64,000 nucleotides of DNA from Candidatus Nomurabacteria bacterium RIFCSPLOWO2_01_FULL_42_17 (GCA_001785985.1 MFVE01000002.1:28600-92599); one strand, 5' to 3'. Shown: positions 49,638 to 53,121, counted from the first letter of the stretch. The notes: generated from the sequence alone by a model not told the origin. Made by a program: numbers and translations.

Positions 49638-49804
49638 ATACAGACATACTAATTTAAATTAGCTTATTTTGCAAAATTAGCTTTTGACTCGCTCGACTCA
49701 ATGTACGAAGTTAGAACTCAATTTAGTGCATTAAATGATACACCAATATACATTCCTACATTATTATCATACTAAAAACATCTTCCCTTCTTTATCCTCT
49801 TGAA

Positions 49805-50233
49805 TTAGGTCAGCAAGTATTCTTGGATTTTAAATGAAAGATACCCAAGCAAACCAAGCTGAATGGCTGGGGTCAATCCCACTGAAAGAAATGGAATAAT
49901 TGGCATATAAACATTGTAAGACCATCTATTTGTTTGTAGAGCCCACCATTCAATATTTATAGCAACGATAAATCCGAGAGGAATGATAATCCAACTTTGT
50001 TTTTTAAATGAAGGAAAAAAAATAAAAGGTAAACACAAAACAACTATAATAATTGCATCAACCAAGGTAGCTCTTAAAAGAATAAATTCTGTAATTTTGC
50101 CACCAATATAATTATCATATAGGAATGAATGGAGATTCTCCCAAATTACATTCAAAATAAAAGCAACAAAAAAAATTAGAAATACTTTTCTAAATATATT
50201 CATAAAAAAATAATACCACAGTTCTACATCCAA
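49805..50233 (-). CDS. Polytopic membrane protein, hypothetical (island gene A)
   Basis: A 142-aa protein with four TM helices. It is preceded by the island motif at about 50290. Confidence 0.35.
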   Translation of the reverse strand: MDVELWYYFFMNIFRKVFLIFFVAFILNVIWENLHSFLYDNYIGGKITEFILLRATLVDAIIIVVLCLPFIFFPSFKKQSWIIIPLGFIVAINIEWWALQTNRWSYNVYMPIIPFLSVGLTPAIQLGLLGYLSFKIQEYLLT

Positions 50234-50370
50234 TCAGTAGCAAACAAAAAGAACCATATTTCTATGGCTCTTTTTCAATGCGCGGACTAGTGGACGAAGT
50301 TGGAACTGAATTTGAGAGGAGAAACGATAGCGGTATCTTATTCCTATGTTCTATTCCACCCCAAGACTCA

Positions 50371-51213
50371 CTATTTATTCCCCTCGCTAATTTTGAGAAC
50401 AAAACTGTGCACCAGACGATTCAAGTTTCCCAGCCTTTCGGCTATTGGTATGACCTTGTCCTTATATTTTATTTCCATTTCTAAGTATGTCTTCCTTAGA
50501 GCCTGTCTTTTCTTATTTTTATCACCATGAAAATCGTCTTGGGACATCACCTGTTGATATTCGGCCGAGGAGATAATCAGCTTTTTGACTTCATCCGTTC
50601 TTAGCACAATAAAGTCAAGAAGAGAATTCCATTTGCTCTCGAGATCTGTCCGTCCGAGATCATGCAATAAATACATAACTCTACCAGATTCAATTTCCAA
50701 ATATTTTACTGAATCTCCAGTAGTATCATTCCCAAAAGGAACTTGAGTGTTGGTAAGAGAATTACCTGTTATTGTATTAATAAATTTTCGTGTATAATTA
50801 AACGTGGTCACTGTTTCTTCAACATTAAATTCTTTAGGATAAACACCGGCATCAATCAGCTTTTGAATTTCGATCTTCTTTTCCTCTGCTGTTTTACTCA
50901 TATGATCAGGAATCTCACCCAATGCTTCAATATTACCTGCTCGATAAGCCTCGATTAGCCTGTGGCACAAGTTAGATTCAACTTCAAATCCAGTCAACCC
51001 ATTCAATAAAACCGAGTGAGACTCGCTTGTCCTAGGAACACATGTATTCAATTTTTCTGGAGGTAATGCCCTTGCCGCATCTGCAACTGTAAGTAGCTCA
51101 ATTTTCACTTCAAAGAGTGTCTTATCAAACTTCTCAAATTCCTGAACATTACCTTTTTCAGGAATTATAACTTCTTTAACTCGAACATCCTCGGTTGGTT
51201 CAATTTCCTTCAT
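50371..51213 (-). CDS. Hypothetical protein (island gene B)
   Basis: A 280-aa protein with no recognisable domain. It is preceded by the island motif at about 51275. Confidence 0.35.
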   Translation of the reverse strand: MKEIEPTEDVRVKEVIIPEKGNVQEFEKFDKTLFEVKIELLTVADAARALPPEKLNTCVPRTSESHSVLLNGLTGFEVESNLCHRLIEAYRAGNIEALGEIPDHMSKTAEEKKIEIQKLIDAGVYPKEFNVEETVTTFNYTRKFINTITGNSLTNTQVPFGNDTTGDSVKYLEIESGRVMYLLHDLGRTDLESKWNSLLDFIVLRTDEVKKLIISSAEYQQVMSQDDFHGDKNKKRQALRKTYLEMEIKYKDKVIPIAERLGNLNRLVHSFVLKISEGNK

Positions 51214-51322
51214 AACAAAAGTATGTCACTGATTCGAAATCCCGTCAATCGTTGTATTTTCTGCGGCTTAGTGAACGAAGTGGAAACTGCGATACGCAAC
51301 CATAATGGTTATATTTACATAC

Positions 51323-51856
51323 CTACTTTTCATTCGTAAAGGGATATTTTTTATACATCAGAGCAATTTGGTCTGCTAAAGTATCCATACCCATTTTAGC
51401 TCTCCTTATATCAACATTCTCTTCATCTTCAATTGGTTGTGGAATATGTTTCCCTCCCTCTTGAGTAAATTGTGTGCCGTAAATTTGTCCCTGTTTTTGA
51501 TTTACTCTAATTCTATCTTCAAGATAAGCAACATCTCTTCTCGCAACTTCTTGAGACGGAAGTCCTTTCATTAATTCCAGACACATTTTTTGAAATTCAA
51601 CATCAAGGTCTGCGTGCTGAATCAAAAGCCACGCGTTGTGGCTCGCTTCTTTACCAACTTTAGAAATAGTTGGAAAGCCAATTTTTGCAATAATTTCTTT
51701 CATCCTTTCTGTGTTTCTTTTGTCCACTTCATCATCCCAAAAATCTGGCTCAGTCTCACTTCTGTCTCTCATGTCTTGGTCAACATCAGTCATGCTCTGA
51801 AGCTCAGAAGCAATGTCTGGATAATGTATTTTGGGTTGAGAATCTTCTATACTCAT
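51323..51856 (-). CDS. Hypothetical protein (island gene C)
   Basis: A 177-aa protein. It is preceded by the island motif at about 51906. Confidence 0.35.
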   Translation of the reverse strand: MSIEDSQPKIHYPDIASELQSMTDVDQDMRDRSETEPDFWDDEVDKRNTERMKEIIAKIGFPTISKVGKEASHNAWLLIQHADLDVEFQKMCLELMKGLPSQEVARRDVAYLEDRIRVNQKQGQIYGTQFTQEGGKHIPQPIEDEENVDIRRAKMGMDTLADQIALMYKKYPFTNEK

Positions 51857-51941
51857 ATTTTTATTGTTTTACGCTAATCTTTTATAAAACGAACTTCATC
51901 AGAGTCAAAAGTATACCAAGTTAGAACTACAATCCATAACG

Positions 51942-53036
51942 CTAAGCGCGATTCTCTTCCCACCTTTTCTGGACTTTGCCCTTAAAATAATCCTTCAAAT
52001 TCATCGTGCCCTCCATATTTTTGTAATTTTCAGGCTCAAGAAAAGCGCTGATTAAAAGGCGCGCATGCTCCCTTTTAATACTAAAGTATCTAGAAAAAAT
52101 CTCTCCCCATTCGCCTTCAGTAAGCGTTTGTTCCATCTTGAGTGGAGACAGAAAATCACCGTGTTCATTTGAGACGGTAAAGTCTTCCAAAGCTTTTTCC
52201 TCTTTTAGGAACTCATACGCGGCGAGGAAAACATATGCATGATCATCGTCTCGCATATCCATCAATTTCTTGCCATTGGGTGTATCGGGTTTCTCGGTAA
52301 CAGCAAAAAACCCCCGTAAGTCTTCCGGGGCAACTGGGAAAAAACCTTTTTCGTTCCCAAACTTTATCCCATGACGCATGAGAACAATTTTTTCTCTGTC
52401 TGGACCTATGATTGAAGGGTCCGGGTCGGGAGAATTATATCTTCCGTCTTTGCCAATTGCCGTTTTAAGCGCTTCGTCAAAGGCTTGCTCCGAAACAAAG
52501 CTTCTAAGCAACGTATAGAGTATCCTGCTTGTTCGGCCATTGCCGTCATTAAAAAGATGCACCTCATTGATCATGGCTGGAAGGAGGTATGCTCTATCCT
52601 CCAAAGAAAGGCCTCCCAAGGATTCATACGCCTCCCTCAACAAAATCTCTTTGTCTTCATGTCGTGGTACCGCAGAAGTGCTCATTCCTTCAAGGCGGAC
52701 TCTCTCGCCATCGGTCCTCCTTTCATGTATTGGTATATCTCGTGCAATACCGTTGATACGAACCAAAAAGTCCTTAAACTTTTCAAAAGAAAATTGGTTT
52801 GCGGCTTCAGGAGAGGCAAGAAGATGCTGAGTATATTCATACGCACCGATGCGGCGCAATAAATCTACAACTTTGCCCGACTGCTGTTCGCGCAAGGAAT
52901 TTTCGTCAATTGTCTGAGGCATTTCATTCATAGCGGAAGTATACCAAACTAGAATCAAAAAATCCCCGCGAGGGGATTTTTTGATTCGCTCGAACCTCTT
53001 CTTGAAATCCAGCCTGGCATTTGGAAACCCTTTCAA
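51942..53036 (-). CDS. Fic/Doc (Fido) family protein, putative AMPylating toxin
   Basis: The Fic motif HLFNDGNGRTSR (HxFx(D/E)GNGRxxR) is present. The true start may be the internal MNEMPQT methionine (about 52931). Confidence 0.8.
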   Translation of the reverse strand: MKGFPNARLDFKKRFERIKKSPRGDFLILVWYTSAMNEMPQTIDENSLREQQSGKVVDLLRRIGAYEYTQHLLASPEAANQFSFEKFKDFLVRINGIARDIPIHERRTDGERVRLEGMSTSAVPRHEDKEILLREAYESLGGLSLEDRAYLLPAMINEVHLFNDGNGRTSRILYTLLRSFVSEQAFDEALKTAIGKDGRYNSPDPDPSIIGPDREKIVLMRHGIKFGNEKGFFPVAPEDLRGFFAVTEKPDTPNGKKLMDMRDDDHAYVFLAAYEFLKEEKALEDFTVSNEHGDFLSPLKMEQTLTEGEWGEIFSRYFSIKREHARLLISAFLEPENYKNMEGTMNLKDYFKGKVQKRWEENRA

Positions 53037-53098
53037 ACATTACGCTTCGCTACGCGAAGCGCGCCAAAATTTTGCCAAAAATGACCTGAGTTTGATTC

Positions 53099-53121
53099 TT
53101 GCGCGATCGACCGGACTTGAG
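53099..53121. repeat. 22-nt direct duplicate of the 3' end of the intron-containing tRNA-Asp (att-like)
   Basis: ttgcgcgatcgaccggacttga occurs at 53099-53121 and again at 53289-53311. It covers the T-loop 3' half, the T stem, the acceptor 3' strand and the discriminator. Confidence 0.6.

Follow-up and report, generated by a model that had tools for sequence, protein, structure and literature searches.

Introduction

Cis-mobilizable elements (CIMEs) are islands flanked by attachment sites (att) and devoid of recombination genes, formed by accretion beside integrative and conjugative elements (ICEs) or integrative and mobilizable elements (IMEs). Integrons hold arrays of unrelated accessory genes, many of resistance type, as promoterless cassettes with a common promoter, a site-like element 3' of each gene and one point of entry. 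In Prochlorococcus, tycheposon islands are stacks of tRNA-targeted integrative elements and their remnants (bioRxiv 10.1101/2020.12.28.424599). Here, these systems are compared with a region between tRNA-Asp and tRNA-Thr genes in a 64 kb stretch of DNA (the window) of Candidatus Nomurabacteria bacterium RIFCSPLOWO2_01_FULL_42_17, a groundwater bacterium of the Parcubacteria within the Candidate Phyla Radiation (CPR, Patescibacteria), in which four genes, one of them encoding a Fic protein, are accompanied by copies of a short repeated element. CPR genomes are tiny, and little is established on how their accessory genes are acquired.

The region is probably a stack of four independent and unrelated single-gene cassettes (Fic, DUF6624, an ORFan of 280 amino acids (aa), and a protein with four transmembrane segments (4-TM)), acquired one by one at the 3' end of tRNA-Asp and each ending in a module of ~70 bp. 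It appears rather likely that this partly decayed stack belongs to a CPR-wide family of tRNA-associated cassettes. As in tycheposons, the insertions are at tRNA genes and are each flanked by a partial-tRNA attachment motif, newcomers would push older insertions outward, degenerate remnants are present, and accessory cargo is carried in a streamlined genome. Unlike tycheposons, which are kilobases long and carry their own tyrosine recombinase, the CPR units are single genes with no recombinase found, their repeat comprises only the last 5–9 nt of the tRNA and the terminator, and each unit has the conserved ~70-bp module with a small open reading frame (ORF). With CIMEs are shared integrase-less tandem units with att-like repeats at a tRNA or conserved gene, presumably moved in trans; CIMEs are decayed ICEs or IMEs of one family within one genus, whereas here no ICE or IME partner was seen and conservation of the end module spans phyla. 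The likeness to integrons extends to the unrelated and often resistance-type cargo, the 3' element and the single entry point, but neither IntI nor attI was seen, no attC-type inverted repeat or foldable structure was found, the CPR cassettes have promoters of their own and enter at a tRNA 3' end, and what is conserved in their element is sequence and coding rather than structure.

Repeat copies between tRNA-Asp and tRNA-Thr

A degenerate 14-mer, AGTT[CT][CT][AC]ACTT[CG]GT, occurs exactly four times in the 64 kb, at 49705–49718, 50294–50307, 51275–51288 and 51915–51928 (copies 1 to 4), in each case on the minus strand, in intergenic DNA and between tRNA-Asp and tRNA-Thr. The 19-mer of an earlier note on this DNA gave three matches at up to three mismatches, against 0.2 expected by chance in the window. 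With a hidden Markov model (HMM) built from the four copies no further match was obtained elsewhere in the window, and the earlier statement that the element precedes no other gene there holds for the remaining ~60 kb. Five copies had been counted; four were recovered, whereas the fifth, at ~52923–52952, scored E = 39 with the four-copy HMM and shares with copy 4 only TGGTATACT, an extended −10 type that is common throughout the window. Copy 4 is itself weak: of the two patterns only the 14-mer matches it, and its score with an HMM built from relatives is E = 0.14. The repeat is real and non-random, but it does not serve as a promoter box and gives no evidence of a Fic toxin-immunity system.

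Along the minus strand, tRNA-Met is followed by a LAGLIDADG ORF, the intron-bearing tRNA-Asp, a gene-less insert, a terminator hairpin, the Fic, DUF6624, 280-aa and 4-TM genes, and two tRNA-Thr genes. The features from tRNA-Asp to tRNA-Thr are as follows.

53292–53577, minus strand: tRNA-Asp(GUC) with a group I intron (~210 nt) in the anticodon loop, exons GCGGTCGTAGCTCAACTGGTTAGAGCGCGTCCCTGT ... CACGGACGAGGTTGCCGGTTCAAGTCCGGTCGATCGCG, read from the sequence
53099–53288, minus strand: gene-less insert (53121–53288, 168 bp) with three strong hairpins and no ORF, from the repeat search
52952–52987, no strand assigned: bidirectional terminator hairpin with a perfect 16-bp stem (100% complementary) flanked by A and T runs, preceding the Fic promoter
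51942–52946, minus strand: Fic cassette gene with promoter, 329 aa, ATG 52931; Pfam Fic E = 3.9e-7
51915–51952, minus strand: module copy 4, degenerate and truncated, plus strand VYQVRTTIHNAKRD...; E = 0.14 with the HMM of the relatives
51323–51856, minus strand: DUF6624 cassette gene, 177 aa; Pfam PF20329 E = 1.7e-21
51263–51339, plus strand: module copy 3, the best preserved, nhmmer E = 1.2e-15; ORF 51271–51339 reads (V)NEVETAIRNHNGYIYIPTFHS and stop, ATG start lost
50371–51248, minus strand: 280-aa ORFan cassette gene including promoter, ATG 51213, from the promoter scan
50278–50351, plus strand: module copy 2, nhmmer E = 2.2e-11; ORF from ATG 50278 reads MRGLVDEVGTEFERRNDSG, after which a 1-nt deletion shifts the frame
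50191–50284, minus strand: junction piece with terminator hairpin (50251–50270) and promoter ...GGATGTAGAACTGTGGTATTAT, 80–92% identical to DNA directly 3' of tRNA-Asp in the related loci L019, L074 and L064
49805–50218, minus strand: 4-TM protein cassette gene, 132 aa from ATG 50203, leaderless; TGGTATTAT at 50210–50218 plus 6 nt
49694–49775, plus strand: module copy 1, nhmmer E = 1.6e-3; ORF 49701–49775 reads MYEVRTQFSALNDTPIYIPTLLSY and stop
49488–49674, minus strand: promoter TTGCAA-17-TAGTAT (49646–49674), then tRNA-Thr(GGU) and tRNA-Thr(CGU); tRNAs by ARAGORN and Rfam

The earlier gene list was correct except for the start of the Fic gene, which is ATG 52931, in agreement with the gene callers, and not TTG 53036; the longer ORF would contain the terminator hairpin 52952–52987. 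Copy 4 overlaps the Fic stop codon and also the TGGTATACT that probably serves DUF6624. The stack is anchored at the 3' end of tRNA-Asp, which together with its intron was missed by ARAGORN, and by Rfam at the gathering score; an intact tRNA-Asp is present at the equivalent position in the relatives L019, L030, L037, L068 and L074. Group I introns at position 35/36 of tRNA-Asp and tRNA-Asn of Patescibacteria were described in 2026 (PMC13011429). The tRNA-Thr pair is the conserved far border of the variable slot, and has the same place in L030, L037, L050 and L061.

Distribution of the module in CPR genomes

An exact-pattern scan for the 19-mer AGTTCYAACTTCGTNCAYT in 185,579 species genomes (one genome per species) returned 66 loci, a number close to the total chance expectation for the whole collection, and at least 31 of them carry CPR/Patescibacteria labels (Paceibacterota, Nomurabacteria, Zambryskibacteria, Saccharibacteria, Gottesmanbacteria, WWE3 and Peribacteria). 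Several loci hold two or three copies within 8 kb, among them L050 with three and L052 with two. The motif, earlier taken as private to the island, is conserved across CPR phyla beside unrelated cargo.

The 19-mer was identified as the 3' part, and the most conserved stretch, of a unit of ~70 nt, e.g. GGTATATAAATATAACCATTATGGTTGCGTATAGC-AGTTCCAACTTCGTTCACT-AGTCCGCGCA, hereafter the module. It is located 4–70 nt after a co-oriented cargo gene, and a terminator hairpin is usually next. An nhmmer search with a model of the relatives' units yielded additional, more diverged copies, and recovered copies 3, 2 and 1 of the window with the E-values listed above. The module is not described in Rfam, Pfam, NCBIfam or PADLOC, and a limited literature search found no paper linking CPR, tRNA and cassettes or integrons, which is not proof of novelty.

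Several identities of the module were considered and rejected. For an inverted repeat of attC type at the hairpin, downstream sequence matched the inverted 19-mer at 6.9 of 11 at best, no better than shuffled sequences (7.0). Phage origin was dismissed on a single match in 2.9 million viral contigs. The segment GGTATATAAAT-ATAACCA-TTATGGTTGCG has a dif-like look, which is no more than a resemblance.

Association with tRNA genes

In the Paceibacterota relatives the slot of the module is that of the window, with tRNA-Met/tRNA-Asp on one side and tRNA-Thr(GGU)/tRNA-Thr(CGU)/release factor on the other. In Saccharibacteria and other lineages it is found 0.5–2.3 kb downstream of a co-oriented tRNA gene for Arg (six loci), Ser, Trp, Tyr or Glu, usually with one cargo gene in between. 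At most of these loci, the 19-mer is followed by a repeat of the 3' end of the local tRNA (last 5–7 nt or more), often together with its terminator. Such tails read GTACCA, GGGGCAC, CCGCCAT and CCTGC, and CGCGCA for tRNA-Asp; in the window, copy 2 ends in the tRNA-Asp-like ...CCGCGCA and the stack starts directly at the tRNA-Asp 3' end, in the orientation of the tRNA.

Longer direct repeats were also present. In L038, the sequence TACCAAACATAAGCACAATGACCTC... comes after tRNA-Arg and again after the module (25 nt perfect, in a 50-nt stretch at 90%), a repeat which spans the tRNA tail and the terminator and flanks a single-gene insert of 0.97 kb. In L068, a perfect 46-nt repeat of tRNA-Asp-like tail and terminator flanks an aminoglycoside-phosphotransferase-like gene with its module, and in L050 a 63-nt repeat occurs between successive junctions. 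The features of a tRNA-targeted island are thus represented by the location 3' of a co-oriented tRNA, the direct repeats of the tRNA end (L038, L068) and variable content with a signature of transfer; an integrase of its own was not found, in what was a weak test.

Similar hairpins stand at both borders of single cassettes, and in L038 the hairpin lies within the repeat, 19 nt from its start and 11 nt from its end at ...TTAC, a geometry reminiscent of IS608 ends. Together with a Y1 transposase gene that adjoins one Fic homologue, this would agree with cassettes that are non-autonomous relatives of hairpin-dependent single-strand transposons (IS200/IS605-like, with the HuH transposase in trans). 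Such an origin is nevertheless very improbable, as the hairpins look like the ordinary terminators of tRNAs or mRNAs, inspection of the arrays, with neighbouring genes partly annotated, showed no Y1 transposase nearby, and IS200/IS605 elements are not known to duplicate their target or to copy tRNA ends.

The position of the module in the cargo 3' untranslated region, before the terminator, its AGTTCYAAC resembling a T-loop, and a MAFFT alignment of the 19-mer and tail with the T-arm and acceptor 3' strand of tRNA-Asp (one 4-nt gap allowed) could be read as signs of a structured RNA or a tRNA-derived pseudo-element, i.e. a 3'-untranslated-region element or tRNA-like 3' half acting as RNA. In 20 module copies, however, RNAalifold found no conserved pair, no Rfam family was obtained even at E up to 1, and the variation is codon-periodic, which makes an element acting as RNA highly unlikely. 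A complete or split tRNA was likewise rejected, with no complement to the putative acceptor strand within 170 nt upstream and no T-stem possible, and so was a conserved RNA structure in the module.

A small (~83 aa) gene for a GIY-YIG nuclease-like protein adjoins the anchoring tRNA or tmRNA in four unrelated CPR genomes (L012 3774–4028, L019 3986–4234, L037 5579–5830, L046 2443–2721).

Cargo genes and probable horizontal transfer

According to our own reading of the sequences, the genes adjacent to modules encode nucleotidyltransferases, GrpB, hydrolases, NUDIX, HAD, APH, GNAT, CDF and DoxX proteins, as well as a copper nitrite-reductase-like protein, an ECF sigma factor and an IS1595 transposase. 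The same slot holds different cargo in every genome, DUF6624 being the single shared cassette. The DUF6624 gene with its module (51846–51263) is 88% identical at nucleotide level to L050 5415–4832, the homology stopping in the tail, whereas only 69% identity is found between the release-factor genes that flank the slots of the window and L050. This comparison shows that the module goes with the preceding gene, and it argues for horizontal movement of the DUF6624 gene together with its module. The earlier description of horizontally acquired accessory genes in a tRNA hotspot is supported in this respect.

Promoters and independence of the four genes

Each gene was found to have its own promoter, as the earlier note had proposed, but these are ordinary promoters, located downstream of the motif or, at copy 4, overlapping it. 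Downstream of copies 1, 2 and 3 lie, respectively, TTGCAA-17-TAGTAT of the tRNA-Thr pair, TGGTATTAT followed after 6 nt by the ATG of the 4-TM gene, and TTGACG-17-(TG)CATACT followed after 6 nt by ATG 51213 of the 280-aa gene. The Fic promoter consists of the extended −10 TGGTATACT (52938–52946), 6 nt from ATG 52931, and the gene is predicted to be leaderless. The position of the motif relative to these promoters is not fixed: it ends 30 nt (copy 1) and 26 nt (copy 3) before the −35 box, in copy 2 it ends 75 nt before the −10 box with the terminator hairpin 50251–50270 separating it from the 4-TM promoter, and in copy 4 it overlaps the −10 box. The earlier figure of 50–70 bp upstream is about right numerically, with 68, 91, 62 and 59 nt to the next start, but the copies also lie 82, 59, 35 and 14 nt past the previous stop codon, and in comparisons the module travels with the preceding gene.

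Upstream of at least 20 further long ORFs in the window, TGnTAnnnT is found 5–8 nt from the start codon, and it therefore represents the normal, largely leaderless promoter type of the organism. Many genes start 6 nt (range 5–8) after TGnTAnnnT and lack a Shine-Dalgarno sequence, e.g. at 375, 1005, 5871, 6004, 9744 and 15427; further starts of this type are at 16142, 34719, 35599, 38350, 44819 and 55394. Leaderless mRNAs appear to be common in this organism.

That the element is a dedicated promoter or operator co-regulating a four-gene Fic toxin-immunity or defence system was suggested by the presence of four same-orientation copies, each of which precedes a gene or the tRNA pair, with no others in the window, by the good extended −10 that copy 4 overlaps, and by the intact Fic active-site motif. 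This is extremely improbable. Separate ordinary promoters lie downstream of copies 1–3, a terminator stands between copy 2 and the next gene, and the spacing to the next start, to the −35 box and to the terminator is not constant; in relatives the module follows and moves with the upstream gene, beside unrelated cargo, and the Fic gene has no conserved neighbours while the 280-aa gene is an ORFan. The promoter or operator function of the motif was accordingly rejected on both anatomy and comparative data, and intergenic boxes of this kind should not be annotated as promoters.

The Fic protein has a divergent Fic domain (Pfam Fic 31.3 bits, cut-off 24), in which the catalytic motif HxFx(D/E)GNGRxxR is present as HLFNDGNGRTSR. 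The motif is shared with Fic/Doc toxins and SoFic defence by one of the four genes; unlike in those systems, the match is confined to the catalytic loop, a conserved partner gene is lacking, and the homologues are solitary Parcubacteria genes. The PADLOC match to SoFic (E = 1e-4) covers residues 119–142 only (~24 residues at the active site), no solved structure was matched by sequence in PDB, and for the genes as a whole PADLOC, NCBIfam and PDB gave nothing past the Fic catalytic loop. The Fic family consists of ~330-aa proteins with 56 homologues, and all named ones are from Parcubacteria/Paceibacterota. The Fic and 280-aa proteins are identical to A2917_00485 and A2917_00475. For the 280-aa protein only itself was found among 5.8 billion proteins, and no match in Pfam, NCBIfam or PADLOC; the 4-TM protein had no family match in Pfam, PADLOC or NCBIfam and is not called as a gene on the public contigs.

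Five Fic homologues (47–69% identity and more distant) on long contigs lie in five unrelated neighbourhoods, and DUF6624, the other two genes and the motif are absent from all five; the conserved co-occurrence of Fic with its supposed partners, which had been named as a check of the proposed defence module, was accordingly not found. The four genes are not expected to work together and no four-gene system exists, and the Fic gene should not be labelled as part of a multi-gene toxin system.

In one Paceibacterota genome (L012 3336–9000), the tmRNA gene is followed, after ~4.3 kb, by a Fic homologue (P0025) that lies among small ORFs. A diverged type-B module copy reading VEDVRTVFERRNDATVYIPTL was found by nhmmer just upstream of this homologue, an arrangement which implies that Fic can be cassette cargo at another classical insertion hotspot.

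Small ORF in the module

On the strand opposite to the cargo, the module encodes a peptide of 25–35 aa, (M)R[GD]LV[DN]EV[GR]TAIRNHNGYIYIP, also written (M)R[GD]L-V[DN]EV[GR]T-AIRNHNGYIYIP-[DN]L..., with the consensus (M/L/W)R[GD]L-V[DN]EV[GR]T-A[IF][RE]x[HN][ND]..[IV]YIP[DNT][LF] and a stop a few codons on. In this reading frame the motif of the earlier note consists of the codons for V/M-D/N-E-V-R/G-T. Diverged copies keep the peptide by synonymous changes (L031 MRGLVKEVGTIIRQHNGYIYIPKLS, L057 RDLVNNVRTDIKNHKGYVYIP), the two sequence subtypes of the module differ by exactly one codon, and indels are in multiples of 3. Stop codons across the ORF core amounted to one in 20 copies, variability by codon position was 5.3 / 3.1 / 7.3, and the ratio of nonsynonymous to synonymous change (pN/pS) was 0.41–0.48, the lowest of the six frames (0.41 in the segment outside the constraint of the search pattern). 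Judged from sequence, the open frame, the codon-periodic variation and the synonymous excess are those of a predicted small-protein gene. The first codon varies (ATG, TTG, TGG or ATA), and an internal RTG is conserved.

The peptide profile matched 56 proteins in the 5.8-billion-protein collection, all of 27–78 aa and unnamed, many ending in ...YIPDLGKKLEALETA. Profile searches of Pfam, NCBIfam and PDB for relatives were empty or insignificant. AlphaFold predicted a helix (residues 2–14) and coil with a predicted local distance difference test score (pLDDT) of 74, uninformative on function.

Two other readings of the coding signal were rejected. A peptide on the cargo strand, ending ...SSNFVH and stop, lies in a frame without start codons and its upstream residues change radically; its appeal was that the 19-mer varies at three positions, all of them third codon positions in this frame, yet precisely these were left free by the search pattern. 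A fragment of a longer protein was dismissed with all 56 database matches at 78 aa or less, with one exception at L068. There (L068 4653–5066, minus strand, module-like part 5004–5059), a diverged small ORF (LRGIVINVRTALKSHNENL...) runs on in frame for ~135 aa into a fragment from the C-terminal third of a D12-class methyltransferase acting on adenine in DNA, with a DPPY motif and a Pfam match at E = 1.2e-4; hhalign to the peptide profile gave E = 5.5e-4. This continuation may point to how the small ORF originated. ORFs of ~30 aa on the opposite strand are missed or inconsistently called in annotation.

The coding signature and the shortness of all homologues raise the possibility that the module is chiefly a gene for a ~30-aa small protein with a cellular role (regulator or addiction-type peptide), and that the arrays grow by duplication and homologous recombination between junctions, possibly triggered by homing endonucleases, rather than by site-specific integration. 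No integrase was seen in a crude tblastn test; a LAGLIDADG gene adjoins tRNA-Asp in the window and in L037, and GIY-YIG genes stand beside tRNA or tmRNA at the four loci mentioned above; the identical 46–63 nt junctions could serve as homology, and the flanking tRNAs are conserved between lineages. We regard this as unlikely, though with an appreciable chance. The module occurs at tRNAs of differing identity, mostly with a tail matching the local tRNA, so that a step recognising tRNA 3' ends is required. Moreover, a terminator-like hairpin lies just upstream of the ORF, its start codon is not conserved, and the peptide has neither a family or structure match nor more predicted structure than the helix and coil.

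Proposed growth of the cassette stack

In the explanation by independent cassettes, each new cassette would be inserted between the tRNA and its terminator, displacing the older ones outward, so that the oldest one in the window would be 4-TM, next to tRNA-Thr. The modules of the window would be decaying, by the frameshift in copy 2, the loss of ATG in copy 3 and the truncation of the decayed copy 4. Since no recombinase was found in the window or the loci, insertion would depend on a factor encoded elsewhere and acting in trans, which could be a site-specific recombinase acting on a short tRNA-tail core, or double-strand-break repair with the repeated junctions and conserved tRNAs as homology.

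Several points weigh against this explanation. The search for recombinases, by annotated neighbours, inspected cargo and tblastn with a XerD sequence, was negative for the window and every fetched locus as a crude and weak test, and there is no direct evidence of excision, circular forms or an empty site within one species. Copies of the small-ORF type in the window share at most 6 nt (CGCGCA) with tRNA-Asp, tail and hairpin being kept in copy 2 only, and ~20 CPR loci show no tRNA within the 8 kb examined. Most relatives were found by the exact 19-mer pattern, which biases the sample, and most are metagenome-assembled genomes, in which repeats can be mis-assembled; the transfer argument is based on a single pair of cassettes. 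It is doubtful whether the small ORF is expressed, with a hairpin and T-run directly upstream on its own strand and many copies without ATG.

The wider proposal, that CPR bacteria and perhaps DPANN archaea have an unrecognised integron-like gene-capture system, is put forward tentatively, as possible. In such a system, single genes with an end module would be put between a tRNA and its terminator by a trans-acting enzyme, the stack would supply much of the accessory content, and recognition would rely on the ~30-aa peptide or on its DNA. The module tags single-gene insertions at tRNA 3' ends from Paceibacterota to Saccharibacteria, with cargo including resistance-type enzymes (APH, nucleotidyltransferases, GNAT), and would offer a sequence handle for finding CPR flexible genes, dating insertions and hunting the responsible enzyme. 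The question is testable because some Saccharibacteria can be cultured.

Other insertions and neighbouring genes

The gene-less insert next to tRNA-Asp is bordered by a perfect repeat, 53099–53120 being identical (22/22) to 53289–53310, the tRNA-Asp 3' end from T-loop to 3' end. Its right end holds AAGTTCTTAG...CTTAGAAACTT, and 53112–53161 is 92% identical to L068 5206–5255, ~650 nt downstream of the L068 tRNA-Asp. The insert looks like the scar of a second, different family of tRNA-Asp insertions, with crossover in the T-loop.

The LAGLIDADG homing-endonuclease ORF (53568–54230, minus strand) is free-standing between tRNA-Met and tRNA-Asp, with its stop codon within the first bases of tRNA-Asp; a homologue with 78% identity has the same location in Nomurabacteria GW2011_GWB1_43_19 (L037). 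A plus-strand tRNA with anticodon CAU (Met, Ile2 or initiator) at ~54448–54745 is split by a group I intron (Rfam 76 bits, 54470–54689) and was not called by ARAGORN. Two public contigs of the organism are identical up to ~54581, and then part inside this intron into differing flanking genes, representing either a rearrangement or an assembly join at the repeated intron.

On the far side of the slot, a 1014-aa protein with fibronectin-III repeats is encoded between tRNA-Thr(CGU) and the release-factor gene (46362–49406, minus strand). As the release-factor gene directly follows tRNA-Thr in L037, L050, L030 and L068, this gene is probably another lineage-specific insertion downstream of a tRNA. 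Just past the release-factor gene, a MazE-like/PemK-like toxin-antitoxin pair is located at 44847–45433 on the minus strand, according to the precomputed Pfam labels of the public contig.

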